Shown piece by piece: positions 7,625 through 63,999 of a stretch of DNA of 64,000 nucleotides. This stretch comes from Candidatus Curtissbacteria bacterium. Its GTDB lineage: Bacteria > Patescibacteriota > Microgenomatia > Curtissbacterales > GWA2-41-24. The notes under the pieces were generated by a model. That model saw nothing but the letters and a program-made list of their open reading frames with translations. It searched no databases and was not told where the DNA came from. Made by a program: the position numbers and the translations under genes. Numbering within the stretch: the stretch's first letter is position 1; each line of letters opens with the position of its first letter. Location: NCBI GenBank assembly GCA_030647775.1, contig JAUSJC010000010.1, positions 433,334 to 497,333 of the forward strand, in the 5' to 3' direction.

Positions 7625-8650
7625 CTAGTTAATCGTAAAATCGGGAACTTGCAGATTTTCCGCGCTCTCTGGCTTTTTAGCCACATTTAGAGGATGGTTT
7701 TCCATTACCCCTTTTAAATCATCAACCACCAAGTGTGTATATTTTAAAGTGGTATTAAGGCTCGAGTGGCCAACAATCCTTGCTACCTTTAGTGCCGGAG
7801 CTTCTGCTCTTATCAATTCCGTAATAAAACAGTGGCGCAGAAGGTGTAAATGTACCCGTTTCTTAATACCAAGGATTTTTGCCCGTGTTTTAAGTTCGTT
7901 TATGAAGGAGTGGGCAGCAATACGTTTGCTATCCTTAAAAAATGATTTGAAAAGGGGATCTTCCGGTTTAGCCTTTCTTATACTAAGCCACTCTTCTAAC
8001 CTTAAGCCTAAATCGGTAGGTAGGGGCACTAGTCTTGGTTTATTAAATTTGGCGTGTCGTATACGGATAACCATGTCGCCAAAATCAACATCCCCGACAT
8101 CAATAGCCACGGCTTCTGACCGTCTAAGCCCAGTACACGCCACCAACTCAATAAAAAAGTCGTAATATGCCCGATCAAGATACATGTGGCATTTATCATA
8201 GTTTCGTGGGCAGTTAATAATAGCCCTAATTTCATCTACAGTTAGCAGATCCGGGAAGAACGGATCGCTTCTGTTAGCTTTAATACAATATGAAATGTCG
8301 TCCGGCAAAAATCCCTCTTCCAGCCACAACCAACGCAAAAACTGCTTTGTGGATGAAATAATCGAGTTCACCGAAGCCGTAGTAAGACCCTTTTTCTTTC
8401 CCAAGCCGTTGGTTGATTTAGATTTCTGGTCTTTGCAAAAAAGGATGTAATCTCTGGCGGTATCTTTGTTTATTGGTTTCCCATCTATAAAAATAGGAAA
8501 TCGGCGCAAATTGTACCAATTTCGTTGGATTGTCTTTTCTGAAAGCCCTCTATAGCGGTAAAAATCGCCAAATTTGGCAAGAAATCGCTCCATTTGGGAT
8601 TTTTTTACTATTTTGCCCCTTTTACTTGTGTATGACATATAATAAACCAA
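7625..8650 (-). CDS. int: tyrosine site-specific recombinase / phage integrase
   Basis: C-terminal catalytic region HLHLLRHCFITELIRAEAPALKVARIVGHSSLNTTLKYTHL (R..HxxR..Y signature); N-terminal SAM-like domain. Confidence 0.85.
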   Translation of the reverse strand: MVYYMSYTSKRGKIVKKSQMERFLAKFGDFYRYRGLSEKTIQRNWYNLRRFPIFIDGKPINKDTARDYILFCKDQKSKSTNGLGKKKGLTTASVNSIISSTKQFLRWLWLEEGFLPDDISYCIKANRSDPFFPDLLTVDEIRAIINCPRNYDKCHMYLDRAYYDFFIELVACTGLRRSEAVAIDVGDVDFGDMVIRIRHAKFNKPRLVPLPTDLGLRLEEWLSIRKAKPEDPLFKSFFKDSKRIAAHSFINELKTRAKILGIKKRVHLHLLRHCFITELIRAEAPALKVARIVGHSSLNTTLKYTHLVVDDLKGVMENHPLNVAKKPESAENLQVPDFTIN

Positions 8651-8691: not shown

Positions 8692-9804
8692 ATGTCCTAT
8701 CAACCCAAAGTAGCATTAGTACATGATGATTTCGTCCAGCAAGGCGGAGCGGAAAATCTGTTTGCCGAGATCGCCCAAATCTATCCAAATGCCCCAATTT
8801 ATACATCACTGGTCGATTGGAATAAACCGCCTATGGGAATAGACCGAAATAGGGTCCGACCCTCTTTTATGCAGAGAATCCCCTTTGCCGCAAAATTTTA
8901 TAAATTACTTTTGTCTCTCTACCCTTTGGCATTTGAAAGTTTCAATCTTTCCGCCTTTGACGTGGTTATTTCATCAACCACCCGTTTTGCCAAAGGCGTT
9001 GTAACCCCGCCAGATACGATCCATATTTGTTACCTAAACTCCATTCCCAGGTTTCTTTGGCATACCGACCATAAGAAAAGTTATTTGCCGTCCTCTCTCG
9101 AATCTATTTTTCGGCCCATCATAAATTGGCTAAAGCGCTGGGATATGGCTGCTGCTTCACGGGTAGATTTTTTTATTGCCAACTCCCAAAATGTTAAAAC
9201 CCAAATCAAAAAAGTCTATAACCGAAATTCCCAAGTTATCTATCCATTTGCCGATACAGATTTTTTTAAGCCCCCCAAAATTCATAACTGGAGACTGAAG
9301 AGTCAAAAATATTATCTTATTGTTTCGCGCCTGGTTCGCTGGAAGAAAATCGAAATCGCCATTCGTGCCGCCAATAATTTAGGAATCAACCTTTTTGTTA
9401 TTGGTGAAGGGCCGGACAGGAGTCGACTGAAGCACTTTGCGGGGAAGAGCACTAAATTTATAGGCAAAATTTCAAAAGAGGAGCTGCGTCAACTCTATCA
9501 AAACGCCCAAGCGCTAATTGTTACCCAAGAAGAAGATTTTGGTATAGTAACTGTTGAGGCTCAAGCATGTGGCCTTCCTGTTATTGCTTATGACCATGGC
9601 GGCCAAAAAGAAATTATCAAAAATGGCCTTACTGGTTTATTTTTCCCCTCGCAAAGCACCAAGGCTCTGGAAGATGCAATTAATGCGTCAAGTGCGGTAA
9701 AATGGAATTTAGCCGAAATTGTAAAGAACGGTCAAAGGTTCTCAAAGAAACAGTTTGTCAAAAATTTAAAAGCGAAAGTAAAAGAGTATGCCAGCCAAAA
9801 ATAA
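8692..9804 (+). CDS. GT4-family glycosyltransferase
   Basis: KVALVHDDFVQQGGAE N-terminus and the EEDFGIVTVEAQACGLPVIAYDHGG (E-x7-E) motif; start moved to 8692 to avoid overlapping the integrase. Confidence 0.8.
   Translation: MSYQPKVALVHDDFVQQGGAENLFAEIAQIYPNAPIYTSLVDWNKPPMGIDRNRVRPSFMQRIPFAAKFYKLLLSLYPLAFESFNLSAFDVVISSTTRFAKGVVTPPDTIHICYLNSIPRFLWHTDHKKSYLPSSLESIFRPIINWLKRWDMAAASRVDFFIANSQNVKTQIKKVYNRNSQVIYPFADTDFFKPPKIHNWRLKSQKYYLIVSRLVRWKKIEIAIRAANNLGINLFVIGEGPDRSRLKHFAGKSTKFIGKISKEELRQLYQNAQALIVTQEEDFGIVTVEAQACGLPVIAYDHGGQKEIIKNGLTGLFFPSQSTKALEDAINASSAVKWNLAEIVKNGQRFSKKQFVKNLKAKVKEYASQK
8850..8863. repeat. copy of the 15-bp REP-like quasi-palindrome TAGGGTC[C/G]GACCCT(A), in frame inside the GT4 gene (encodes NRVRPS)
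   Basis: exact core GGGTCCGACCC. Confidence 0.7.
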
Positions 9805-24376: not shown

Positions 24377-25570
24377 ATGTGGCAAAGAATTAAAAACTAT
24401 TACCACCTAGCCCAAGCTTTTTTAGCAGCAGTCATTTTTAATTTTCCCTCAAATAAAATTAAGGTAATCGGCGTTACGGGAACAGACGGCAAGACAACGA
24501 CCGTCCATATGATTTATGAAATTATAAAAGCATCGGGGCAAAAAGTATCCATGATTTCCTCGGTGGGAGCCGCCATTGGATCTAAAGCTTTCGATACAGG
24601 TTTCCATGTTACAACTCCATCAAGCTGGCAGGTTCAAAAATATCTAAGAAAAGCGGCCGACAGCGGACATAAGTATTTCGTCCTGGAAACCACTTCCCAC
24701 GGCCTTGATCAAAACCGCCTGGCCTATGTGCACTTCGAAATTGGAGTCCTGACCAATATCACTCACGACCACCTTGATTACCACGGTACTTGGGAGAACT
24801 ATGCCGCCTCCAAAGCAAAACTTTTCAAAAACGTTGCTTATTCAATTTTGAATTACGATGACCATAAATCATTCTCTTTTCTCCAAAATAAAGCAGCAGG
24901 TCAAGTTATTCCCTATGGAATCAAAAGTGGTGCCGATATCAATACAAAAAATTTTCCGCTTAAGCTCAAAATTAAAGGGGACTACAATTTAGAAAATGCC
25001 TTAGCATCGGCCGCCGCAACCAAAGCGCTAGGTGTTTCAAAGCAAAAAATCGTGAGAGCCCTCGCCAAGTTTTCAAAGGTTCCGGGTAGGATGGAAGAAA
25101 TAAACCTTGGTCAGGGCTTTAACGTTATTGTTGATTTTGCCCATACCCCAAATGCCCTGTCCCAAGCCCTCAGAACCCTAAAACCCAAAAGGCCGGGCCG
25201 TCTCATGGCCGTTTTTGGAGCAGCGGGAGAGAGGGATAAACTCAAAAGGCCGATTATGGGCAGAGTTGCCGATGAGAATGCCGATATCATTATCCTGACT
25301 GCCGAAGATCCAAGAAACGAAAAGGTTTTAGATATCGCCAGCCAGATTAAAAAGGGTATTAAAAATAAAACCGAAGGCAAAAGTCTTTTTGTAATTGAGG
25401 ACAGGGAAAAAGCTATCGGGTATGCCATAAATCTGGCTGCCAAAAATGATATTGTCGGAATTTTTGGCAAGGGTCACGAGAAGAGTATGTGTTTCGGCAA
25501 GAAGGAATCGCCTTGGGACGAATTCCATGTTACTGCAACCGCTATTAGAAGGAGGGTAAATGGCAAGTAA
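24377..25570 (+). CDS. murE: Mur ligase, MurE-like (UDP-MurNAc-L-Ala-D-Glu:diamino acid ligase), lacks the N-terminal domain
   Basis: VIGVTGTDGKTTT P-loop; DYHGTWENYAASKAKLF; the position after ftsI is the conserved murE slot. Confidence 0.75.
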   Translation: MWQRIKNYYHLAQAFLAAVIFNFPSNKIKVIGVTGTDGKTTTVHMIYEIIKASGQKVSMISSVGAAIGSKAFDTGFHVTTPSSWQVQKYLRKAADSGHKYFVLETTSHGLDQNRLAYVHFEIGVLTNITHDHLDYHGTWENYAASKAKLFKNVAYSILNYDDHKSFSFLQNKAAGQVIPYGIKSGADINTKNFPLKLKIKGDYNLENALASAAATKALGVSKQKIVRALAKFSKVPGRMEEINLGQGFNVIVDFAHTPNALSQALRTLKPKRPGRLMAVFGAAGERDKLKRPIMGRVADENADIIILTAEDPRNEKVLDIASQIKKGIKNKTEGKSLFVIEDREKAIGYAINLAAKNDIVGIFGKGHEKSMCFGKKESPWDEFHVTATAIRRRVNGK

Positions 25571-27554
25571 AAATAATTTCGCGGCAGTGGTGCTTGCGGC
25601 GGGTGTCGGCAAAAGGATGAAGTCCAAGACCTCAAAAGTTTTGCACGAAGTCGCCGGCAAACCAATAATTACACGCACCGTGGGGATCGTTGCATCCCTA
25701 AACCCCAGCCAAATAGTTATCGTTGCCAGTTCGCAAAATGCTAAAGACGTAAAAAGAATATTAAACGAAAAACCGGCCATCGCAATTCAAAAAGAGGCCC
25801 TAGGTACTGCTGATGCGACGAAGGCGGGATTGACAAAAATTAAAGAAGGCATAAAAGATATTGCGGTTCTCTATGGTGATGACACCGCCTTTTACAAGCC
25901 GCAGACTATCCTAAACGTCTTTGCGCTTCACCGAAAAACTTCTGCAAAAATTACTTTCGTCACTTTAGAAAAAGAAAATCCGTCTGGTCTTGGCAGAATC
26001 GTCAGAGAGAATGGTAAGCTTATCGGCATTGTCGAGGAAAAGGACGCGACAAAAAAAGAAAGGCAAATCAAAGAAATAAATGACGGTTTATATTTTTTCA
26101 GCAAAGACTGGCTTTTACAAAATCTTTCCAAACTTTTACCCTCTCCAGTAACAGGAGAATATTACTTGACCGATCTTATCAAAATTGCCCTTTCCCAAAA
26201 TCAAAAGGTCGAAACCTATAAATTAAAAGATCCCGGCCAGTGGCACGGAATAAATACCCCCGAAGAGTTGGAAGAAGCCAACAGCAAACTCAAAAACAAA
26301 ATCCATATTATGGGAATCGTCGGTGCCGGTGCAGCGGCCGTTGCCGGAATTGCCAAAGCATACGGTTTTAAAGTTTCTGGATGCGATATTTCGCCGCAGT
26401 CGGCTTACTCAAAAGGGTTAGGTATTAAGGTCCAAAAAGGCCATGACTCCGGCCATTTGAAAGCAGCCGACATGCTTATAATCTCTCCGGCCGTCTTAAA
26501 ACTAGATCCCAAAAACCGGGAGGTGGCAAAAGCAAAAAGTTTAAAAATCCCCGTTTCAACATGGCAGGAATTTCAGGGGGAATATTTACAAGAAGGTAAA
26601 TTTGTTATTGCCGTGGCGGGAGCTTATGGGAAATCAACGACAACCGCCATGGTTTCTCAAATATTAATCGATGCTGGTCTCGACCCGACATGTGAAGTTG
26701 GTGCAAAAGTCCTTTCATGGGATAAAAACTTTAGAGTCGGCAAGTCAAAATACTTCGTCTGCGAGGCGGACGAATACAATAATAACTTTTTAAATTACTC
26801 GCCGGATATTGCCGTCATCTTAAATATCGTCTGGGAGCATCCGGACTTTTTCAAGTCCGAAAAGGATATCACCGCATCGTATCAAAAATTTATTGATAAT
26901 ATCAAACCCGGCGGCACCCTAATCACAGGGTCCGACCCTCTGATACTTAAGCACAGAAAAAACGTCAAAACAGAGAAAATAGGGTCCGACCCTAACATTA
27001 CTAACATTAAACTTTCAATAATCGGTAATTTCCGAAAAGAAAACGCCGCCGCCGCGCTTTCCGTCGCCAAAGCGCTAAACCTTGATCTCCAAAAAGCCAA
27101 AAAATCGATAGAAAATTTCAAAGGCTTGGGGCGCCGTTTGGAGTTAAAAGGGGAGATAGACGGCGTCAAATTTTACGATGATTATGCCGTTCAGCCTTAT
27201 ACGGTCAAAACTACCGCGGACGCGTTAAAAGAAGAATTTAAAGATAAAAAAGTTTTGCTCGTTTTTGAACCACATACTTTTTCTCGCATCGAAACTTTTT
27301 TTGGCGATTTTGTCTCTGCGCTTAAAAAATCAAATGTCGATAAAATCTATATAACAGAAGTTTTTACGGCTAGGGAAAAAGGCAACAAAAAAACACTCGC
27401 TAAAAAACTGGCTAAAAAGGTAGGGAAAAAGGCAAAATTTACCGGATCGCTTGCCCAAACAGCGCAAGAAGTTAAAGATAATCTCGGGAAGTTTGAGATT
27501 GTCCTCTCGATGGGCGCCGGCGATATTTATAAGTTATACGATTTTTTTAAATAA
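25560..27554 (+). CDS. murC: fusion protein: N-terminal GlmU-like sugar-1-phosphate nucleotidyltransferase domain (no LbH acetyltransferase domain) plus C-terminal UDP-N-acetylmuramate--L-alanine ligase MurC
   Basis: N-terminus VVLAAGVGKRMKSKTSKVLHEVAGKPII ... LGTADA ... YGDD (GlmU pyrophosphorylase motifs); C-terminus IMGIVGAGAAAVAGIAKAYGFKVSGCDIS and VIAVAGAYGKSTTT (MurC). Confidence 0.75.
   Translation: MASKNNFAAVVLAAGVGKRMKSKTSKVLHEVAGKPIITRTVGIVASLNPSQIVIVASSQNAKDVKRILNEKPAIAIQKEALGTADATKAGLTKIKEGIKDIAVLYGDDTAFYKPQTILNVFALHRKTSAKITFVTLEKENPSGLGRIVRENGKLIGIVEEKDATKKERQIKEINDGLYFFSKDWLLQNLSKLLPSPVTGEYYLTDLIKIALSQNQKVETYKLKDPGQWHGINTPEELEEANSKLKNKIHIMGIVGAGAAAVAGIAKAYGFKVSGCDISPQSAYSKGLGIKVQKGHDSGHLKAADMLIISPAVLKLDPKNREVAKAKSLKIPVSTWQEFQGEYLQEGKFVIAVAGAYGKSTTTAMVSQILIDAGLDPTCEVGAKVLSWDKNFRVGKSKYFVCEADEYNNNFLNYSPDIAVILNIVWEHPDFFKSEKDITASYQKFIDNIKPGGTLITGSDPLILKHRKNVKTEKIGSDPNITNIKLSIIGNFRKENAAAALSVAKALNLDLQKAKKSIENFKGLGRRLELKGEIDGVKFYDDYAVQPYTVKTTADALKEEFKDKKVLLVFEPHTFSRIETFFGDFVSALKKSNVDKIYITEVFTAREKGNKKTLAKKLAKKVGKKAKFTGSLAQTAQEVKDNLGKFEIVLSMGAGDIYKLYDFFK
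26926..26994. repeat. two copies of the REP-like 15-mer 54 bp apart, in frame inside the MurC fusion gene (each encodes GSDP)
   Basis: cores at 26928-26938 and 26982-26992. Confidence 0.75.
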
Positions 27555-40698: not shown

Positions 40699-41016
40699 CT
40701 CTATATTTTAATCCTGAGCGAAGTCGAAGGACCTCCTCCCTTAACACAAACTGTCATCCTGAACTCGATTGCAAATTTATGAGTAATAAGCTCTCTTATT
40801 CAGGATCTGGTGTTGGTTCAGGATCTTTTTTAGATTCCGGATCAGGTCCGGAATGACGATGAGGTGCGGGTTGCAAACAGCCTCAGATTATGTTGTTTAG
40901 GGAGTGCTATTGAAACAACGATTTCAATAGCTTTCGTACTAACATCCGGACGAAGTCGGAATAAATTCGCGCACGATAATTACTTCCTCGGTGACTGTTG
41001 CAAATAGGGTTGTATT
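40699..41016. repeat. ftsA-ftsZ intergenic region (318 bp) composed largely of fragments of the palindromic element family (ATCCTGAGCGAAGTCGAAGGAC; GTCATCCTGAACTCGATT; TTCAGGATC x2; CCGGATCAGGTCCGG; TCCGGACGAAGTCGGA; hairpin CTATTGAAA...TTTCAATAG)
   Basis: motifs read directly; the same motifs recur at 42140, 45459, 52532, 53388, 55070 and 58939. Confidence 0.65.
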
Positions 41017-42132
41017 GTGCTTAAATGCCGCTTGCAAATGTTAATCAAGCCCGACGTCAATCGTTTTGCCAAAATTAAAGTCCTCGGCGTTGGCGGGGGC
41101 GGCGTAAACGCCCTCAATTCCATGGTTGCCAATTCTCAAATTCAAGGTGTCGATTTTGTGGCCGTCAATACCGACCAACAGCATCTTTTGGCCTCCATTG
41201 CCCAAACCAAAGTCCAAATCGGGGACGGCATCACCAAAGGTTTAGGTGCCGGTGCCGACCCGGAAATTGGCAAAAAAGCGGCCGAAGAATCTCTCGAGCG
41301 CATTAAACAGGTAATCTCCGGTGCCGACATGGTTTTTATTACTTATGGCGCCGGCGGCGGAACCGGAACCGGTGCCGGTCCGGTAATTGCCGATCTGGCG
41401 CGCAAAATGGGGATTCTGACAGTTGCCGTTGTCACCAAGCCTTTCGGTTTTGAAGGCACCCGCCGAATCGTTGTTGCCGACGAGGGCATAGAAAACCTCC
41501 GCGACCGCGTGGATACTTTAATCGTTATCCCAAACCAAAAACTTTTGGAAGTTGTCGATAAAACCGTTTCCCTTCTGGAAGCTTTCAAGCTTGCCGATTC
41601 CATTCTTTCACAAGGAGTTCAGGGGATTTCCGATATCATTGTCATGCCGGGCCTGATCAATGTTGATTTTGCCGACGTTAAGACCATTATGACCAATGCC
41701 GGCACAACCCTGATGGGTGTTGGTGTCGCCTCCGGCGAAAACCGCGCCGCCACAGCCGCCCGCGCCGCTATTGTCTCACCGCTTCTGGACTCTTCCATCG
41801 AAGGCGCCCGCGGAGTCCTATTTAACATTACCGGCGGTACCGATATGACCATGAACGAAGTCGATGAAGCCGCCAAAGTCATCACCGCCCAGGCCGACCC
41901 TGATGCCCAAATTATTTTTGGCGCCGCCATCGACGAAAAGTTAATCGATCAGATCAAAGTCACCGTTGTCGCCACCGGTTTTGACGAGCAGAGAAGAAGA
42001 TACGTTCAAATGACCACGGAAGATAAAGAAATTCAGGAGCAAGTCCAGTCGCAATCCCAAAACCAGGAAGAAGAACCGGTCATCGACGAAGACGAATTCG
42101 ACATCCCCACCTTCCTCCGCCAAATTCGATAA
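41017..42132 (+). CDS. ftsZ: cell division GTPase FtsZ
   Basis: KVLGVGGGGVNA tubulin signature and GGTGTGAGPV T7 region; the start could be the ATG at 41038. Confidence 0.95.
   Translation: MLKCRLQMLIKPDVNRFAKIKVLGVGGGGVNALNSMVANSQIQGVDFVAVNTDQQHLLASIAQTKVQIGDGITKGLGAGADPEIGKKAAEESLERIKQVISGADMVFITYGAGGGTGTGAGPVIADLARKMGILTVAVVTKPFGFEGTRRIVVADEGIENLRDRVDTLIVIPNQKLLEVVDKTVSLLEAFKLADSILSQGVQGISDIIVMPGLINVDFADVKTIMTNAGTTLMGVGVASGENRAATAARAAIVSPLLDSSIEGARGVLFNITGGTDMTMNEVDEAAKVITAQADPDAQIIFGAAIDEKLIDQIKVTVVATGFDEQRRRYVQMTTEDKEIQEQVQSQSQNQEEEPVIDEDEFDIPTFLRQIR
42089..42132 (+). repeat. left copy of a 44-bp direct repeat (the 3' end of ftsZ)
   Basis: GAAGACGAATTCGACATCCCCACCTTCCTCCGCCAAATTCGATAA versus 42894-42937 (2 mismatches). 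Confidence 0.8.
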
Positions 42133-42139
42133 CCTACCC

Positions 42140-42166
42140 ATCATCATCCTGAACTCGATTCAGGAT
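42140..42166. repeat. hairpin element CATCATCCTGAACTCGATTCAGGATC directly after the ftsZ stop
   Basis: 8-bp stem ATCCTGAA/TTCAGGAT; same family as 40753-40770. Confidence 0.65.
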
Positions 42167-42853: not shown

Positions 42854-42893
42854 AAATTTTTCAGAATAATTGAAGTAATGGAGTTGAAGACGA

Positions 42894-42937
42894 ATTCGAC
42901 ATCCCCACCTTCCTCCGACAAATTCGTTAATTGTTCT
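42894..42937 (+). repeat. right copy of the 44-bp ftsZ-3'-end direct repeat, non-coding, downstream of the DUF433/PIN-like cassette
   Basis: GAAGACGAATTCGACATCCCCACCTTCCTCCGACAAATTCGTTAA. Confidence 0.8.
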
Positions 42938-45458: not shown

Positions 45459-45507
45459 TGTCATCCCGAACTTGTTTCGGGATCTAAATCCTCTAAATCG
45501 GGATTTA
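45459..45507. repeat. two adjacent hairpins (GTCATCCCGAA-cttgt-TTCGGGATC; TAAATCC-tctaaatcg-GGATTTA) between convergent yjjX-like and GIY-YIG genes; the first supplies the last codons and stop of the GIY-YIG gene
   Basis: palindromes read directly. Confidence 0.65.
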
Positions 45508-45757: not shown

Positions 45758-46367
45758 GAGCTATTATATACAGATGCTGAAGCGAGTTCAGCATGACAAA
45801 TTAATGGACGAACAAAAACTCCTTGACGAAATTGCCGAAGAGATAGAAAAGTGCAAAACCTGTAAAGTTGGTAAAACAGGCAAGCCTGTTCCCGGTGAGG
45901 GCGATCCAAACGCCGAAATTGTTTTTATCGGTGAAGCACCGGGCCGGACGGAAGGGGAGACAGGTCGGCCGTTTATCGGCCGTTCCGGCCAGTATTTAAC
46001 AAAACTGATCGAGTCAATCGGCTTGAACCGAAGCGACGTTTTTATTACCAGCCCCGTTAAATATTTCCCAATTAAATCCGGCAAAGGCAGGGCGCCGACC
46101 GACGCCGAAATTGCCCACGGAAGGAAGCATTTATTAAAACAACTAGTAATAATCGATCCAAAACTCATCATCCTTCTAGGAAAAGTTGCCTCAAAAGCCA
46201 TCCTAAAAAAAGATATACTAGTATACTTGGACCATGGAAAGCTCTTGAGAGAAAATGGCAGGACATATTTCATCACCTATCACCCCGCCGCCGCCATCCG
46301 TTTCCAGAAATTTAAGGCTTTAATAGAACAAGACTTCAAACTGCTCAAACGGTTAATAAAAAAGTAG
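45756..46367 (+). CDS. family-4 uracil-DNA glycosylase
   Basis: CxxC N-terminus; GEAPGRTEGETGRPFIGRSGQ motif. Confidence 0.85.
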   Translation: MSYYIQMLKRVQHDKLMDEQKLLDEIAEEIEKCKTCKVGKTGKPVPGEGDPNAEIVFIGEAPGRTEGETGRPFIGRSGQYLTKLIESIGLNRSDVFITSPVKYFPIKSGKGRAPTDAEIAHGRKHLLKQLVIIDPKLIILLGKVASKAILKKDILVYLDHGKLLRENGRTYFITYHPAAAIRFQKFKALIEQDFKLLKRLIKK

Positions 46368-46432: not shown

Positions 46433-47725
46433 ATGGAAAAAGAAGACGTAATCGAAAAAGACTTAGAAATAACAGCCGCCACCGGTGGTGCCGCGCCTGT
46501 TCAATTACCGGGTAAGGTTATTTCGGTTTTCCCGGCATTGGCGCACCGGAATTTTCAGCTCTATTTTGCCGGCCAGGCAATCTCTTTAATTGGTTTTTGG
46601 CTGCAGCAGGTTGGACTCGGCTTTTACGTTTTCCATCTTACCAATTCCCCGTTTTGGGTCGGTGTTGTCGCATCTGTCGGCGGATTGCCGGTTCTGCTTT
46701 TTACCACATTTGCCGGCGTTTATATAGATAAAGTCGATAAGCAGAAACTTTTGATTTGGACGCAGGTTGTCGAGGCCGCCATTGCTTTTATTTTTGGAAT
46801 TGCCGTTTTCACCCACACGGCCACTTTGCCCCTCATCATTGTTTTGGCTTTTGCCGGCGGAACGGTTACGGCACTCGACCTTCCGGCCCGCCTCACTTTT
46901 ATAGTGGAAATGGTTGGCAAAAAAGATTTGGCTAGCGCCATTCCTATCAACAACGGCGTTTTCAACTCCGCCCGTTTTATCGGGCCGGCAATCGCCGGGG
47001 CTTTAATTGCAACAGTCGGAGTGGGCTGGACCTTTATTTTAAACGGCCTAAGTTTTATTGCCGGTATCTGGGCAATTTCCAAAATGCGCCCCGTTTTTTC
47101 TCACGAACCGGAGAAAAATGTCCACCCCTTCGAATCGCTCAAGATTGGTATTAAATATTCATTTACCCACCCCCAAATTTTCTATTTGATGATTCTTGCC
47201 GCTTCCGCCGCCATTTTTATCTGGCCGTACCAGCCGCTTATGCCCGTAATTTCCGGGGAAGTATTTCAGTCTGGCGCCGCCGGTCTTGGCTCCCTTCTTT
47301 CTGCCGCGGGTGCCGGTTCCTTAACGGGGGCTTTTGTAACTTCCGCCCTGTCTCGTAGGAAAAACAAGGTACCGCAGATTATGGCGGGGCTTTTAATATC
47401 AAGTGTAACCATGATTCTGTTTTCCCTAAATACGAATTTTCTTGTTGCCCACATTCTTCTTTACATCATCGGGTTCGGGGTGCTGATTCAGGTCTCAACA
47501 ATTAACACTCTTGTCCAGCTGGCTTCGCCGGACCAGATGCGCGGCCGCGTGATGTCGGTTTACTTAACAATGTTTGTCGGCATGATGCCCGTCGGCGCTT
47601 TTCTTTCCGGGTTCATTGCCGATAGGACATCGGCACTGTTTACCATTGGGCTTGGGGGAAGCGCGATGCTTTTAATCGGCACAGCCTTTTATTTTAAAGG
47701 AGTCTTCAAAAACCTTGCACTTTGA
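46433..47725 (+). CDS. MFS transporter
   Basis: 12 predicted TM helices and MFS-like loop motifs. Confidence 0.75.
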   Translation: MEKEDVIEKDLEITAATGGAAPVQLPGKVISVFPALAHRNFQLYFAGQAISLIGFWLQQVGLGFYVFHLTNSPFWVGVVASVGGLPVLLFTTFAGVYIDKVDKQKLLIWTQVVEAAIAFIFGIAVFTHTATLPLIIVLAFAGGTVTALDLPARLTFIVEMVGKKDLASAIPINNGVFNSARFIGPAIAGALIATVGVGWTFILNGLSFIAGIWAISKMRPVFSHEPEKNVHPFESLKIGIKYSFTHPQIFYLMILAASAAIFIWPYQPLMPVISGEVFQSGAAGLGSLLSAAGAGSLTGAFVTSALSRRKNKVPQIMAGLLISSVTMILFSLNTNFLVAHILLYIIGFGVLIQVSTINTLVQLASPDQMRGRVMSVYLTMFVGMMPVGAFLSGFIADRTSALFTIGLGGSAMLLIGTAFYFKGVFKNLAL

Positions 47726-47732
47726 AGTAAAA

Positions 47733-47747
47733 TAGGGTCCGACCCTA
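47733..47747. repeat. REP-like 15-mer TAGGGTCCGACCCTA immediately upstream of the RAYT gene (overlaps its ATG)
   Basis: perfect quasi-palindrome with a C centre. Confidence 0.8.
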
Positions 47748-47904
47748 TGCCGGCTAAAAATTCTATTAAACAATTCGTAGAAAACGGAATCTATCACCTT
47801 TACAACAGGGGAGTGGAGAAACGGAATATATTCCTTGACGAGCAAGATTATTCGGTTTTTCTTGGTTACATCAAGCAGTACCTAGATGACACAGAGCCTG
47901 ATAC

Positions 47905-47919
47905 AGGGTCGGACCCTAA
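47905..47919. repeat. REP-like 15-mer (G-centre orientation) inside the RAYT gene, in frame (TGSDP)
   Basis: CAGGGTCGGACCCTA. Confidence 0.75.
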
Positions 47920-48173
47920 ATCATTAGCAGGTGAGATAGATCTTCTGGCCTTTTGTCTTATGCCGAACCATTTTCATTTTCTGGTTAAACAGACCACAAA
48001 AGATGGTATCACTAAGTTTATAAGGGCAGTGTGCACAAATTACGTCATGTATTTCAATAAGAAATACGACAGGGTCGGCACTTTATTTCAAGGCAAATAT
48101 AAAGGGCTTTTAATCGATAACGATGTTTATCTTTTGCATCTTTCTCGCTATATTCACCTCAACCCTCTTAAAA

Positions 48174-48188
48174 TAGGGTCCGACCCTA
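48174..48188. repeat. REP-like 15-mer (C-centre) inside the RAYT gene, in frame (IGSDP)
   Basis: TAGGGTCCGACCCTA. Confidence 0.75.
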
Positions 48189-48407
48189 AACAAAGCTATT
48201 CTAGTTACAGTTATTACCTCGGCAGAAAGCAGGCTAAATGGTTAAAGCCTGATACGGTCCTTGACTTTTTTAGAACAGCCAGCAAAACTAGCTTAACAGA
48301 TTATTTATCCTACGAAAGCTTTGTAGATGATTATGTTGAAGAGCCCGGAACGGTCATCGAGGATCTGACTCTTGAAGACGAGAGCGAAGATTAGGATAAA
48401 TTAGTAA

Positions 48408-48423
48408 ATTAGGGTCGGACCCT
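48408..48423. repeat. REP-like 15-mer (G-centre, inverted relative to the upstream copy) just downstream of the RAYT gene
   Basis: TTAGGGTCGGACCCTT. Confidence 0.8.
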
Positions 48424-48432
48424 TGGATTTGA

Positions 48433-48738
48433 ATGATTTTAATTCTCACAACCTTTCCCAATAAAACCGAAGCGGTAAAAATCGGCGAGGCGATTTTAGA
48501 CGAAAAACTGGCTGTTTGCTGGAATCTATTTCCGGTGGATTCAAATTATCGCTGGAAAGGCAAAATAGTAAAAGATAAAGAACTTTTGATGATCATTAAA
48601 ACCAAAGACGAAAACTTTGAGAAGATCGAAGATTTTATAAAAAAGAATCATTCCTACGAAGTTCCGGAGATTATATCCGTAAAAGCAAATAAAATAAACG
48701 CTTCTTATTTAGCTTGGGTCAATCAAGAAACTTCATGA
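48433..48738 (+). CDS. cutA: divalent-cation tolerance protein CutA
   Basis: ILTTFPNKTEAVKIGEAILDEKLAVCWN ... YEVPEI CutA1 signature. Confidence 0.8.
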   Translation: MILILTTFPNKTEAVKIGEAILDEKLAVCWNLFPVDSNYRWKGKIVKDKELLMIIKTKDENFEKIEDFIKKNHSYEVPEIISVKANKINASYLAWVNQETS

Positions 48739-49346
48739 GACTAATCGATCTGTCAGTACCGATCAACGAAGATACTCCGATTTATCCGGGAGATCCGAAA
48801 ACAGAGATTAAGCCAAATGGAGTTATGGATACAGATGGTTACGAGGACCATTTTGTTTGTGTCGGTACTCATGTGGGGACTCACGTTGATGCTCCTCGGC
48901 ACATGATTAAGGACGGCAAATCATTAGATCAAATAACACCTGATAACTTTGCGGGGAGAGGAATTGTCATTGACGTTAGAAATGGCTTTAGCCTCGAAAA
49001 GGTTAAAGCAGCTGATATAAAAGAGGGGGACATAGTGCTTTTCTACACCGGTATGAGCCATCGCTACCACCAGTCAGCTTATTATGATGCCTATCCGGCG
49101 ATTACGGAAGAAATTGCCGGATACCTAGTCGAGAAAAAAATAAAAATGGTCGGTGTCGATATGTGTAGCGTTGACCATGAGCCGTTTAAAGTCCACAAAA
49201 TTTTTCTAAAAGAGCAAATTCTCATAATCGAAAATCTCACCAACCTTGAAGCATTGATTGGCAGAGAATTTAAAATCTATGCTTTTCCGATAAAACTGCA
49301 AATCGACGGAGCACCGGCAAGGGTTATCGCAGAAATTTTAGGTTGA
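48735..49346 (+). CDS. cyclase-family protein (kynurenine formamidase-like)
   Basis: HVGTHVDAPRH metal-binding motif. Confidence 0.8.
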   Translation: MRLIDLSVPINEDTPIYPGDPKTEIKPNGVMDTDGYEDHFVCVGTHVGTHVDAPRHMIKDGKSLDQITPDNFAGRGIVIDVRNGFSLEKVKAADIKEGDIVLFYTGMSHRYHQSAYYDAYPAITEEIAGYLVEKKIKMVGVDMCSVDHEPFKVHKIFLKEQILIIENLTNLEALIGREFKIYAFPIKLQIDGAPARVIAEILG

Positions 49347-50449: not shown

Positions 50450-53383
50450 ATGGCAAAACAGCAAAAATTTAAGCCCGTTGACCCAAAACAGGATTTTGTG
50501 GCGATGGAGAAAAAGCTTTTGGACTACTGGTACAAAGAGGGGATAGTCGAAAAATATCTCAAGAAAAACCGAAGTTCCAAAAAGAAATTCTCATTCCTCG
50601 ACGGCCCGATAACCGCCAACAACCCAATGGGCATCCACCACGCATGGGGAAGGACTTACAAGGATCTTTGGCAGCGTTTTTACAATATGCAGGGTTACGC
50701 CGGCCGTTTCCAAAACGGTTTTGACGAGCAAGGTCTTTGGGTCGAAGTCGAAGTCGAAAAAGAGCTGGGTTTTAAAAATAAAAAAGATATCGAAAAATTT
50801 GGAATCGACAAGTTCGTTAATCTTTGCAAAGAACGTGTCAAAAAATTCTCGCGCGTTCAAACCGAGCAAAGCAAACGCTTGGGTTACTTTATGGACTGGG
50901 AAAATTCCTATCACACCTCTTCTGACGAAAATAACTATGCCATCTGGAATTTCCTGAAAGTTTGTAATCAAAAAGGATATTTATATAAAGGCCGCGATTC
51001 CGTGCCCTGGTGCCCCCGTTGCGGCACGGCCATTTCCCAGCACGAAATCTTAACAGAAGAATACAAAGAAATAACCCACGATTCGATCTACTTCAAACTA
51101 CCTCTTATCGACCAGCCACACAAGTATCTTCTAGTATGGACAACCACACCCTGGACCATTCCCGGGAATGTTGCTGTAACCGTCGACCCTAAAGAAACCT
51201 ATACCGAATATCCCATTAGCAGTAACGAATATGTTTTAGTAATGAAAAAGGCCGTTGAGAGGCTAATAAAAGAAAAAGTATTAGAAAGAACTACCGCAAT
51301 AATAACGGATGAGGTTCTGGGGGCATCACTCCTCGACAAAAAATATATTGCCCCATTTGACGATTTTGAAGGAGTAAAGAAATCTCTAGATGGTTACGTA
51401 CATAAAGTCGTAGCAAGTGATGAGCAAATATTACCTATCTCGTCAGAAGAGGGAACAGGGATTATTCACCTTGCTCCGGGCGCAGGGGCAGAAGATTTTG
51501 CTATTTCAAAAAAAGAGAACTTACCAGTAGTCGAGCTAATCGATGAAGAAGCGAATTACCTTTCCGGCTTAGGCAAATTTTCTGGCCAAAGTGCTAAAGA
51601 CCATCCGGAATTAATCACGTCTTATTTAAAAGAAAAAGACAAGGGAAACTTTTTGCTCACAGTCCAACCTTACACTCATCGTTACCCGACTTGCTGGCGC
51701 TGCAAAACAGAACTGGTTTGGCGAGTCGTCGATGAATGGTATATCGCCATGGACCGTAAAGATCCCGATGACAAGAAGGGTCGGACCCTACGCCAGGAAA
51801 TGGTCGATGTCGCCAAAAAGATCACGTGGATTCCAAAGTTTGGCTTGGGAAGAGAGCTCGACTGGCTTAAAAATATGCACGACTGGCTGATTTCCAAAGA
51901 AAGATACTGGGGGTTGGCGCTGCCAATTTGGGAATGCACCAAGTGCGGCAGCTTTGAAGTCATTGGATCAAAAGAAGAACTAAAAGAGAGAGCTGTAGCC
52001 GGCTGGGACGGGTTTGAGGGGCAGTCTCCCCACAGGCCTCAAATTGACGAAATAAAAATAAAATGTTCCAAGTGCGCTGAAACAGTGACCAGAATTAAAG
52101 CGGTCGGCAATGTTTGGCTGGATGCCGGCATCGTGCCTTTTTCTACCATGTCCCAAGACTGGTTTCCGGCGGATTTCATTACCGAATCTTTTCCCGGCCA
52201 GTTTAAAAACTGGTTTTATAGCTTAATTGCCATGTCCACGGTTTTGAAAAATGAAAATTCTTTTAAAACCGTTTTAGGCTTCGCCACACTACTGGACGAA
52301 AAAGGCGAGGAGATGCACAAGTCGAAAGGTAACGCCATCGAATTCAACGAAGCCGCCGACAAAATCGGCGTCGACGTCATGCGTTGGATGTACGCAAAGC
52401 AAAACCCCGTTAATAATCTTTTATTTGGTTATCATGTTGCAGATGAAGTCCGAAGACGCTTTTATTTAATTCTTTGGAATGTTTATTCATTTTTCGTAAC
52501 CTACGCCAATCTAAACGACTTTTCTCTTCCCCGTCATTCTGGGGAGCGAAGCGACTCCAGAATCGATTCTGGACAAGTCCTTCGACTTCGCTCAGGACCT
52601 CAGGACCGTGAGTTTACCGAATCGGCCAGAGTGACAAAGAATGCCCTCGATAACTGGATAATCTCCCGACTAAACTCAACTATAAAAATGGTTACCGATT
52701 CGCTTACCAAATACGATGCTCAAATTGCCTCTACCGCCATTGAAGATTTTGTCATCGGCGATCTTTCTACCTGGTACATAAGAAGAAGCAGGGACAGGGT
52801 AGAGGAGGCGCTGCCTACGATCTACGATATTCTAGTCACGCTCTCAAAATTACTTTCACCATTCACGCCCTTTATCGCCGAAGAAATATATATGAATTTG
52901 GTAGAGGAGCAGTCCGTAAACCTTGCCGACTTCCCTACTTCCAACGCAAAACTCATTGATAAAAATCTCGAAGACCAAATGGCAATTGCACGGACTATTG
53001 TTGAAAAAGCCCATTCGGCAAGAAAAGAAGCCGGCATCAAAGTCCGCCAGCCGCTTGCATCTCTAACTTACGGTGAAGAAAAACTTCCCGAGCAAATCGA
53101 GAAAATAATCGCTGACGAAGTTAATGTTAAAGAAGTAATTACCAAAAAGGGATCAAAAATTACTCTCGATACTAAATTCACTCCGGCGCTAGTTGCAGAG
53201 GGTCAAGCCCGCGAGATAATCCGCAGTATCCAGCAGGCCAGAAAAGATGCCGGCTGTGATCTTGCCGAAAAAGTTACGGTGACACTCCCCGATTGGCCCA
53301 AGGAATTTGAGGAAGAAATTAAAAAGCAAACATTAACGTCGAAACTTGTTAAAGGCAAGAAGCTTGAAATCATTAGGTCTTAA
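50450..53383 (+). CDS. ileS: isoleucine--tRNA ligase (type 2-like) with a degenerate HIGH region and an in-frame repeat-derived insertion
   Basis: GFDEQGLWVEVEVEKELGF (compare IleRS GWDCHGLPIE), DWLISKERYWGLALPIWEC, KMSKS as HKSKGN; about 30-aa Ser/Arg-rich insertion at 52532-52610. Confidence 0.8.
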   Translation: MAKQQKFKPVDPKQDFVAMEKKLLDYWYKEGIVEKYLKKNRSSKKKFSFLDGPITANNPMGIHHAWGRTYKDLWQRFYNMQGYAGRFQNGFDEQGLWVEVEVEKELGFKNKKDIEKFGIDKFVNLCKERVKKFSRVQTEQSKRLGYFMDWENSYHTSSDENNYAIWNFLKVCNQKGYLYKGRDSVPWCPRCGTAISQHEILTEEYKEITHDSIYFKLPLIDQPHKYLLVWTTTPWTIPGNVAVTVDPKETYTEYPISSNEYVLVMKKAVERLIKEKVLERTTAIITDEVLGASLLDKKYIAPFDDFEGVKKSLDGYVHKVVASDEQILPISSEEGTGIIHLAPGAGAEDFAISKKENLPVVELIDEEANYLSGLGKFSGQSAKDHPELITSYLKEKDKGNFLLTVQPYTHRYPTCWRCKTELVWRVVDEWYIAMDRKDPDDKKGRTLRQEMVDVAKKITWIPKFGLGRELDWLKNMHDWLISKERYWGLALPIWECTKCGSFEVIGSKEELKERAVAGWDGFEGQSPHRPQIDEIKIKCSKCAETVTRIKAVGNVWLDAGIVPFSTMSQDWFPADFITESFPGQFKNWFYSLIAMSTVLKNENSFKTVLGFATLLDEKGEEMHKSKGNAIEFNEAADKIGVDVMRWMYAKQNPVNNLLFGYHVADEVRRRFYLILWNVYSFFVTYANLNDFSLPRHSGERSDSRIDSGQVLRLRSGPQDREFTESARVTKNALDNWIISRLNSTIKMVTDSLTKYDAQIASTAIEDFVIGDLSTWYIRRSRDRVEEALPTIYDILVTLSKLLSPFTPFIAEEIYMNLVEEQSVNLADFPTSNAKLIDKNLEDQMAIARTIVEKAHSARKEAGIKVRQPLASLTYGEEKLPEQIEKIIADEVNVKEVITKKGSKITLDTKFTPALVAEGQAREIIRSIQQARKDAGCDLAEKVTVTLPDWPKEFEEEIKKQTLTSKLVKGKKLEIIRS
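51777..51790. repeat. REP-like 15-mer inside ileS, in frame (KKGRTLRQ)
   Basis: AGGGTCGGACCCTA. Confidence 0.7.
52532..52610. repeat. palindromic element (GTCATTCTGGGGAGCGAAGCGACTCCAGAATCGATTCTGGACAAGTCCTTCGACTTCGCTCAGGACCTCAGGACC) inserted in frame in ileS
   Basis: shares the core CCTTCGACTTCGCTCAGGA with intergenic copies; encodes RHSGERSDSRIDSGQVLRLRSGPQDRE. Confidence 0.7.
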
Positions 53384-53525
53384 ACTGGTCATCCGAACTC
53401 GTCTCGGCATCTAGATCCTGAAACAAGTTCAGGATGACGCTAAGATTGCTTCGCGGAGTTTACCCCGACCTGAACAGATCCTTCGCTTCGCTCAGGATGA
53501 CAGGGAGGGGCGCGCAATGACATAA
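53384..53525. repeat. ileS-SEDS intergenic cluster of palindromic elements (GTCATCCGAAC...GATCCTGAA-acaag-TTCAGGATGAC; GATCCTTCGCTTCGCTCAGGATGACAG; CGCAATGAC)
   Basis: read directly. Confidence 0.65.
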
Positions 53526-63248: not shown

Positions 63249-63285
63249 ATTCTGCCTAGGCCCGCAGTTCTGCATTGCAGAACGA
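63249..63285. repeat. 37-bp direct repeat TAGGCCCGCAGTTCTGCATTGCAGAACGAGAACCGCA containing the hairpin GTTCTGC-att-GCAGAAC; second copy at 63963-63999
   Basis: two copies with 1 mismatch flank the LysM gene. Confidence 0.7.
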
Positions 63286-63326
63286 GAACCGCATGGCTTT
63301 GTCTCTTAAACCACACCTGCGCTTGC

Positions 63327-63375: not shown

Positions 63376-63981
63376 TCAGCGGGGAATTGTAAGTGTAGCA
63401 CCGGCAAAAATTAAAGGGTTGCCGTTTGACAGGTAGCCGACATTATTGGCTTTTGCCAAAACCGGCCATTTCCAGCCGTCGGCGTAGACCTTTTGGGCAA
63501 TAATAAACAGGGTATCGCCTTCCTGTACTTGATACGACGTTGCACTTAAATCCTTTATGATTACATCCGCCTCTGTTTTAGGCGGAACTTCCAAAGTTGT
63601 ATCAGTGTAAATTAAATCGGGGTAGATAATTGCATTTTTTACCGCCAGCACATTCCACATTGCCGGATCGCCGTAAGTTCTTTTGGCAATTACAGATAGC
63701 GAATCACCCTCTTTGACCTTGTATTCCCTCTTTGGCTCAAGCGTTTGGTTTTCTACACTTGTTTTTATACCATCACCGATTTCTCCCATCGGGCTGGAAT
63801 TTCTCGTTAGGAAACTGGCCACCAGAAATCCCAAAACGACGACAACAATCGCTCCAAGAAAAAGTCCGGTGTAGGATTGGTATGGGTTAAACTGTTTTAG
63901 TTTCTTTTTGAAACGCCTAAAAGTAGAATTTCTTGCCATATCAATTTGAAACAAGCTCTCTTTAGGCCCGCAGTTCTGCAT
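63376..63981 (-). CDS. membrane-anchored protein with two LysM peptidoglycan-binding domains
   Basis: YKVKEGDSLSVIAKRTYGD and YQVQEGDTLFIIAQKVYAD LysM signatures; N-terminal TM. Confidence 0.8.
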   Translation of the reverse strand: MQNCGPKESLFQIDMARNSTFRRFKKKLKQFNPYQSYTGLFLGAIVVVVLGFLVASFLTRNSSPMGEIGDGIKTSVENQTLEPKREYKVKEGDSLSVIAKRTYGDPAMWNVLAVKNAIIYPDLIYTDTTLEVPPKTEADVIIKDLSATSYQVQEGDTLFIIAQKVYADGWKWPVLAKANNVGYLSNGNPLIFAGATLTIPR

Positions 63982-63999
63982 TGCAGAACGAGGACCGCA
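63963..63999. repeat. second copy of the 37-bp direct repeat (window ends here)
   Basis: TAGGCCCGCAGTTCTGCATTGCAGAACGAGGACCGCA. Confidence 0.7.

Follow-up and report, generated by a model that had tools for sequence, protein, structure and literature searches.

What role does a short quasi-palindrome play when it stands at both ends of a transposase-like gene and twice inside it? The question is raised by a 64,000-nucleotide (nt) stretch of DNA from Candidatus Curtissbacteria, a member of the candidate phyla radiation (CPR); this whole stretch is called the window below. It carries an open reading frame (ORF) of 215 amino acids (aa) that resembles a REP-associated tyrosine transposase (RAYT; REP, repetitive extragenic palindrome). 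With a probability of roughly 0.7, we propose that the ORF encodes a domesticated RAYT-like Y1 HUH nuclease/ligase acting on single-stranded DNA (ssDNA), and that the quasi-palindrome AGGGTCSGACCCT (13-15 bp) is its cognate recognition element. The gene and its flanking elements are as follows.

47747..48394, + strand: Y1 HUH nuclease gene, RAYT-like, 215 aa (Pfam Y1_Tnp, motifs and fold)
47733..47747, + strand: 5' flank palindrome TAGGGTCCGACCCTA, centre C, downstream of the -10 hexamer; its last A doubles as the first base of the ATG
48410..48424, + strand: 3' flank palindrome TAGGGTCGGACCCTT, with G at the centre, 16 nt past the stop codon (48392-48394)

A Y1 HUH enzyme bracketed by a palindrome

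The ORF contains the stretches MPNHFHFLV and YIHLNPLK, in which a first-pass annotation of the sequence had recognized the HUH and tyrosine (Tyr) motifs of an IS200-like Y1 transposase. A profile search bore this out: Pfam Y1_Tnp (PF01797) matched residues 63-137 with 37.7 bits, against a cut-off of 23. The HUH motif is H75-F-H77 (47969-47977) and the catalytic Tyr is Y135 (48149-48151) within YIHLNP. Residues H75, H77, Y135, N139 and P140 were invariant in 26 homologs, as were the blocks N74-H75-F-H77 and Y135-I-H-L-N139-P140. LFQG and YSSY are further motifs besides NHFH and YIHLNP. The 215-aa sequence is recorded in the database as a 'transposase' of Candidatus Curtissbacteria.

For the structure comparison, an AlphaFold2 model of the protein (mean pLDDT 74.8) was submitted to Foldseek. 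The best match was 4er8_A, the Escherichia coli RAYT with a REP hairpin (E 2e-7; TM-score normalised to target length 0.64), followed by the TnpA proteins of ISDra2, IS608 and IS200 (2xm3, 2vjv, 2a6o, 2f4f and 2ec2). Profile and single-sequence searches of the PDB gave no relevant match; only the fold comparison linked the protein to 4er8. Pfam detected no C-terminal helix-turn-helix (HTH)-like domain (Bac_DnaA_C, HTH_23 or HTH_28) at E <= 0.1, and the C-terminal end of the model consists of only three short low-confidence helices. On the strength of the Pfam match, the catalytic residues and the predicted fold, the ORF product is a Y1 HUH enzyme. The Microgenomates (Curtiss-, Davies- and Levybacteria) contain many homologs of 55-79% identity. 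An exhaustive homolog search returned 22,387 representatives (50%-identity clusters) at E <= 1e-3 and 348 at E <= 1e-30; at the latter threshold the clade is thus widespread in Patescibacteria (≈ 350 clusters at 50% identity).

Palindromes were counted in the window and in 20-kb loci of relatives. The 11-mer GGGTCSGACCC matched the window eight times, at 8852, 26928, 26982, 47735, 47906, 48176, 48412 and 51778, and was absent from all 100 dinucleotide-preserving shuffles of the window that served as the chance expectation. The 13-mer AGGGTCSGACCCT is common to all eight copies. The palindrome is thus far above chance, and the core positions given in the first-pass annotation were right to within 1-2 nt; the 15-bp element that the annotation described as overlapping the ATG, and the reverse complement 3' of the ORF, are both in place. 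It had also called the flanking copies inverted. This holds here (C at 5', G at 3'), but the palindrome is perfect around a single unpaired central base, and the 'orientation' of a copy is the identity of that base only (C or G). Among 13 close homologs with both flanks, eight had the copies inverted and five direct. The inverted arrangement is therefore not a conserved property.

As ssDNA, the copies are computed to fold into hairpins of -3.2 to -5 kcal/mol; for the 5' flank copy the computed fold has a 7-bp stem and a 3-nt loop (-5 kcal/mol, z = -5.6). An Rfam scan of 47000-49000 detected no RNA family.

The hairpin co-varies with the protein across Patescibacteria

To compare relatives, we fetched 80 related loci from species-representative genomes and 80 from metagenomes (individual loci carry L numbers below). 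Of these, 148 distinct loci had enough flank for a two-sided hairpin comparison, in which a flank hairpin counted as shared when the two sides of the gene had an identical core of 11 nt or more. Nearly every homolog was bracketed by a short quasi-palindrome with a 4-7 bp stem and a 1-5 nt centre, and the core was identical on both flanks in 101 of the 148 loci. The family consensus is A-R-G-G-T-Y-N-R-A-C-C-Y-T; the exact sequence is lineage-specific (for example AAGGTCCGTCCTT, AGGGTCTGACCCT, AAGGTGTCACCTT and GAGGTTGAACCTC).

The 93 loci with a 13-mer core, which contained 51 different cores, were used to relate core to protein identity. Locus pairs had the same core in 97% of cases at 70-90% aa identity, 68% at 60-70%, 6% at 50-60%, 2% at 40-50% and 0.4% below 40%. 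Some metagenome-assembled genomes (MAGs) have two genes, for example those with the locus pairs L016/L026, L009/L027 and L028/L047; paralogs within one MAG are only 42-48% identical and each has its own hairpin. Such hairpin-protein co-variation over > 90 lineages is the hallmark of a cognate enzyme-site pair. Because core identity tracks protein identity, the Y1 protein probably reads the hairpin, and we regard this as the strongest evidence for the proposed pairing.

Inverted doublets resembling REPINs (paired REPs) were seen in some lineages (L003, L005, L006 and L143-L154). As a separate observation, five loci with homologs of ≈ 41-45% identity (L143, L144, L148, L152 and L154) carry the same AGGGTCSGACCCT core as tight inverted doublets at both gene ends, laid out as 13-mer, 5 nt, 13-mer. 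The AGGGTCSGACCCT core thus recurs in non-adjacent branches of the family.

Copies inside the gene are constrained as DNA

Both core copies that had been placed inside the ORF from the sequence are in frame.

47904..47918, + strand: internal site A CAGGGTCGGACCCTA, encoding G54 S D P57, in the loop before the HUH strand
48174..48188, + strand: internal site B TAGGGTCCGACCCTA, encoding G144 S D P147, in the loop that directly follows the helix of the catalytic Tyr

Sites A and B both lie in surface loops, which have low confidence in the AlphaFold2 model, and many relatives have extra residues at site A. The 93 loci were scanned for internal copies of their own core with up to two mismatches, using a foreign core as control. 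The own core was found inside the gene in 53 of the 93 loci and the foreign core in one. The internal copies cluster at 20-30% and 65-75% of gene length. In distant lineages these two places are occupied by the lineage's own core, read in different frames and encoding different peptides (KGRTF/KGPSF, KGVTF, EVEPR/GGSTS and QGQAL/AGPGP).

Codon choice was then analysed at 31 internal GSDP sites from 17 distinct close homologs (64-78% identity). The sequence was exactly GGGTCSGACCCT at 29 of the 31 sites, whereas background codon usage predicts GGGTCSGACCCT with a probability of 0.0022 per site; the same genes use GGG at 13%, TCC plus TCG at 19%, GAC at 30% and CCT at 31%. The synonymous centre base was C or G in 29 sites and T in one. 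Since GGGTCSGACCCT is fixed against codon usage, these comparisons indicate that selection acts on the DNA of the internal copies and not only on the peptide. On the codon test, together with the use of other reading frames elsewhere, GSDP as a mere protein motif was rejected.

Copies away from the gene

The four remaining window copies are as follows.

8850..8864, + strand: copy in a GT4 glycosyltransferase gene, frame R-V-R-P; likely gene start ATG at 8692
26926..26940, + strand: first copy in a murC-like gene (25560..27554), in frame as GSDP
26980..26994, + strand: second copy in the murC-like gene, in frame as GSDP, 54 bp from the first
51776..51790, + strand: copy in ileS (50450..53383), frame K-G-R-T-L

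All four lie inside coding genes; the palindrome is therefore not extragenic in the window. At the orthologous site in L088, the ileS copy is present without a single nucleotide change, although neighbouring synonymous positions differ. The murC-like pair recurs in L162 and L163 with the same 11-mers and the same 54-bp spacing around a diverged 43-nt spacer. The closest murC-like orthologs (72-79% identity, e.g. L164) are without the sites, and a more distant Curtissbacteria clade has GSDP-14 aa-GSDP in this gene. A spacing rule of 54 bp was considered and rejected: the four-way codon alignment is in register and no other 54-bp pairs were found. With the pairs in register, the spacing is equally well accounted for by common descent and a loss in the L164 lineage.

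The murC-like gene itself (25560-27554) encodes an N-terminal sugar-phosphate nucleotidyltransferase fused to a Mur ligase, a fusion conserved across many Curtissbacteria (orthologs of ≈ 660 aa).

Family-wide, 1.39 Mb of sequence contained 42 exact copies away from the gene, or about one per 33 kb, where chance predicts ≈ 0.04. In a second count, restricted to 13-mer cores and with ORFs defined as at least 100 aa, 45% of the 38 copies lay outside ORFs compared with 9% of bases. Family-wide, therefore, copies prefer extragenic space.

The genomes of the hosts of this clade are small (0.5-1 Mb), and intergenic space is all but lacking in them. Hairpins that are few and tiny, lie partly in coding loops, are nucleotide-perfect and co-evolve with the enzyme point to a maintained function rather than to selfish spread. 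An alternative seems possible, although unlikely: the palindromes would not be selfish REPs but a conserved architecture of four sites (one at each flank, one each in loops A and B) by which a domesticated Y1 nuclease works on the gene that encodes it. Such a nuclease would keep a few nucleotide-perfect sites in the essential genes murC and ileS across Patescibacteria. Among its possible actions are repression of its own gene and, guided by the hairpins, either cutting and rejoining or copy-correction of the part of the gene for the catalytic core. If so, this would be a housekeeping ssDNA-processing system with its cis-sites written into protein-coding loops.

The palindrome might instead belong to another system, as a restriction-modification (R-M) or methylase site, a DNA-uptake sequence or a site for a neighbouring tyrosine recombinase, or be a by-product of GSDP. 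GSDP is indeed conserved as a peptide in close homologs, and an integrase gene lies ≈ 200 bp from the copy at 8852. Codon choice, however, is fixed against usage (29 of 31 sites, at a probability of 0.0022), other lineages and genes use other frames and peptides (RVRP, GRTL, KGPSF and others), and the copies are gathered at the Y1 gene, varying along with it. Their density is also far too low for an uptake sequence; on density and co-variation, both an uptake sequence and an R-M site were rejected. We consider any origin of this kind highly improbable. The integrase gene (7625-8650, - strand) encodes a tyrosine recombinase of the phage integrase family, and no link between it and the copy at 8852 was found.

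Expression signals around the gene

A consensus scan placed a promoter-like element just upstream of the gene.

47705..47733, + strand: promoter-like TTCAAA-17 nt-TAAAAT (consensus scan only; putative function)

The first base of the 5' palindrome is also the last of the -10 hexamer, and the 5' copy spans the region from the predicted transcription start through to the ATG. Close homologs have the -10-like sequence TATGATATCATAT just 5' of the palindrome, and in more distant homologs TTGACA is fused to it. At the other end, the 3' palindrome takes in the stop codon in most close homologs. Given the position of the 5' copy between the -10 hexamer and the ATG, a protein bound there would repress its own transcription.

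Two other functions for the flank copies were examined and discarded. As terminators, they lack a T-run after either copy on the + strand, and the sole terminator-like call is on the - strand, with no gene reading into it. Shine-Dalgarno/anti-Shine-Dalgarno pairing (stems of the type RRGG...CCYY) was rejected as a general explanation, the 5' copy being 20-70 nt from the ATG in most lineages.

The position of the 5' copy would also suit a Y1 protein that no longer moves DNA, with the palindromes as fixed operator or architectural sites of a domesticated DNA-binding protein, autoregulation included. The scattered copies are few and kept at orthologous sites, and unconserved orientation is what a symmetric duplex site would be expected to show. 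Against this, the invariant HUH histidines and Tyr argue for retained catalysis, and what HUH enzymes are known to recognize is the hairpin in ssDNA, not duplex DNA. New copies have appeared in varied places family-wide (the 38 exact 13-mers away from the gene), and site A and murC show length changes that keep the frame and resemble insertions. A purely DNA-binding role is in our judgement rather improbable.

Neighbourhood and inheritance

In the window, where the gene is present in one copy, its neighbours are a major facilitator superfamily transporter gene and cutA; no tnpB partner was found among the window genes at the locus. L084 and L088 have the gene close to cutA and ileS, whereas L020 and L127 have it close to ftsA/ftsZ and ileS. 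The context differs in L002, L082 and L095, where the gene is near neither cutA/ileS nor ftsA/ftsZ. The neighbourhood is partly conserved from 44% to 71% protein identity. Plasmids seldom carry homologs (24 of 72,556 records, none above 39% identity), and phages almost never do. This distribution resembles a housekeeping one, as described for RAYTs (PMC5581495).

These data bear on the possibility that the locus is an autonomous IS200-like insertion sequence (IS), a mobile hairpin-tnpA-hairpin unit whose ends are the flank hairpins and whose solo ends or footprints are the scattered copies. The bracketing is indeed tight, the hairpin abutting the ATG and overlapping the stop codon in most homologs; the position of the gene relative to cutA and ileS shifts, with a different context in L002, L082 and L095; and some MAGs have two genes. 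However, the Tyr motif is of the class-2 Y...NP type and not the IS200 Y...Q type, and the C-terminal tail is long (PMC6006769 Table 1). There is no tnpB partner at the locus and a single gene copy in 64 kb, and the paralogs within MAGs are only 42-48% identical and have different hairpins. The partial conservation of the neighbourhood over 44% to 71% identity and the rarity on plasmids and phages also speak against mobility. In-frame internal copies and conserved copies in ileS and murC would be unexpected of IS ends. An autonomous element thus appears quite improbable.

Proposed mechanism and points that weigh against it

Returning to the RAYT-like enzyme with a cognate hairpin, we start from what was observed, namely the enzyme family and fold, the enrichment of the palindrome and its bracketing of the gene, the co-variation, the DNA-level constraint and the conservation of orthologous sites. 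If the enzyme works like E. coli TnpAREP and IS608 TnpA, the palindrome would extrude as a hairpin (5-7 bp stem, 3-nt loop) in ssDNA, and the enzyme would bind this hairpin and cut and rejoin the DNA alongside it. By this activity new copies would arise, or old ones be renewed, in the vicinity of the enzyme's gene and now and then at other places. Enzyme bound at the 5' copy would, to judge from its position, repress its own transcription.

Several points weigh against this reading. Binding and cleavage by the protein of this clade are predictions by analogy. The score with the NCBIfam equivalog NF047646 (REP_Tyr_transpos) was 40.4 bits and did not reach the cut-off of 80. No GT[AG]G tetranucleotide was found at the 5' foot of the hairpin among the contexts inspected (AATA, ATAC, AATT, CACA and AGAA). 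If one strand of an asymmetric hairpin loop were read, orientation should be conserved, and it is not. Copies away from the gene are few (four in the 64-kb window), and the close relatives L002, L082, L084 and L095 have none in 20 kb. Simple selfish spread does not explain the perfect conservation of scattered copies. Finally, the promoter assignment is a weak consensus match (9 of 12 positions).

Comparison with known systems

The locus had been described as a classic REP-RAYT arrangement. The Y1 enzyme, the flanking cognate hairpins and their co-variation agree with that description; the subclass, the foot, the element length, the copy number and the extragenic location do not. The arrangement is not the classic one because the subclass is different, there is no GTAG foot, the element is very short, copies are few and those in the window are intragenic. 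The RAYT reading is nevertheless largely right, as an unusual version of the known REP/RAYT arrangement.

The closest described group is TnpAY1 subclass 2.1 (PMC6006769), which equals RAYT group 1 (PMC5581495) and TIRYT/TIRtron (PMC3733652). It is reported to have no REPs or only flanking inverted repeats (PMC6006769, PMC3733652). By direct reading of the motifs, rather than with the authors' hidden Markov models, the protein carries its signature, NH[YF]H, FQ, Y[IV]HLNP and SS in the proximal tail (PMC6006769 Table 1). Length (≈ 215-240 aa), low gene copy number and short inverted or self-complementary flank repeats with a small genomic family are shared as well; for RAYT group 1, ≈ 12 occurrences of the flanking 16-mer per replicon have been reported (PMC5581495). 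The TIRYT flank consensus GGGGWSAS resembles AGGGTCMG here: AGGGTCCG matches it at 6/8 positions, AGGGTCAG of L005 at 7/8 and GGGGTCAC of L018 at 8/8.

Four features set the present family apart from subclass 2.1 as described. Quentin et al. (PMC6006769) found no REP-like structures in the subclass, whereas about two thirds of our loci have a two-flank hairpin. No C-terminal HTH (Bac_DnaA_C-like) was found here by Pfam. In-frame internal copies at two fixed loops are undescribed for the subclass, and a CPR/Patescibacteria host lies outside the coverage of those surveys. The hairpin association is thus extended to the group 1/subclass 2.1 branch, which had been reported without REPs.

With the canonical REP/REPIN-RAYT systems (E. 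coli TnpAREP, subclass 2.2; Pseudomonas, subclass 2.5), the locus shares the Y1 HUH enzyme, with 4er8 as nearest fold, the cognate flank hairpin, hairpin-protein co-evolution, paralog-specific hairpins and, in some lineages, REPIN-like doublets. It differs from them in lacking the GT[AG]G foot, in the length of the element (13-15 bp versus 20-40 bp for REPs), in having tens of copies at most rather than hundreds, in window copies that are not extragenic and in a score under the NCBIfam RAYT equivalog cut-off. TnpAY1 subclass 2.4 (Cyanobacteria/Bacteroidetes) likewise has cognate palindromes in frame inside its own tnpAREP, in peripheral loops. Here, in contrast, the HuH-Y core is free of sites, the first of which precedes HuH while the second follows the Tyr helix; they are 13-15 bp long, and the Tyr motif is YIHLNP rather than YIxNNP. 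The IS200/IS605 TnpA proteins share the fold, the catalytic chemistry and the hairpins at both ends of a ≈ 0.7-kb unit; the present locus differs in having no Y...Q motif and no tnpB, no near-identical multiple copies seen and a housekeeping-like distribution.

In the literature on RAYT or TnpAREP in CPR/Patescibacteria we found no description of this clade; one 2026 preprint lists a K07491 match in an archaeon. New here are the arrangement of four sites at the gene, the way in which hairpin and protein vary together over the Patescibacteria, and the perfect copies that essential genes carry. With a 13-nt hairpin target, a 215-aa enzyme and dozens of natural specificity variants, the family offers a minimal system for RAYT specificity. 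The role of RAYTs in their hosts remains an open question (PMC5581495, PMC6006769).

Other repeats in the window

The window contains a second palindromic repeat family, ATCCTGAA-N5-TTCAGGAT, at 42146-42166, 45463-45483 and 53415-53435, with a weaker copy at 45774-45794 (four matches, 0.39 expected). Each strong copy stands just after a stop codon (ftsZ, an NTPase_I-T gene and ileS). They are not classical terminators, because no T-run follows. This is a truly extragenic REP-like family, with no adjacent Y1 gene in the window; downstream of ileS it is doublet-like.

A 37-nt direct repeat, TAGGCCCGCAGTTCTGCATTGCAGAACGAGRACCGCA, occurs at 63257-63293 and 63963-63999, the copies being 97% identical. 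It contains a hairpin with a 7-bp stem and a 3-nt loop and brackets a LysM-domain gene (63376..63981, - strand) beside tRNA genes. A perfect 21-nt inverted match, TCCTGAGCGAAGTCGAAGGAC and its reverse complement, connects 40712-40732 (intergenic, after ftsA) with 52577-52597 (inside ileS). Finally, a 45-nt repeat of 96% identity is found at 42088-42132 and 42886-42930; the first copy encodes the C-terminal tail of ftsZ (EDEFDIPTFLRQIR), and the second lies ≈ 800 bp downstream, after a DUF5615 gene.

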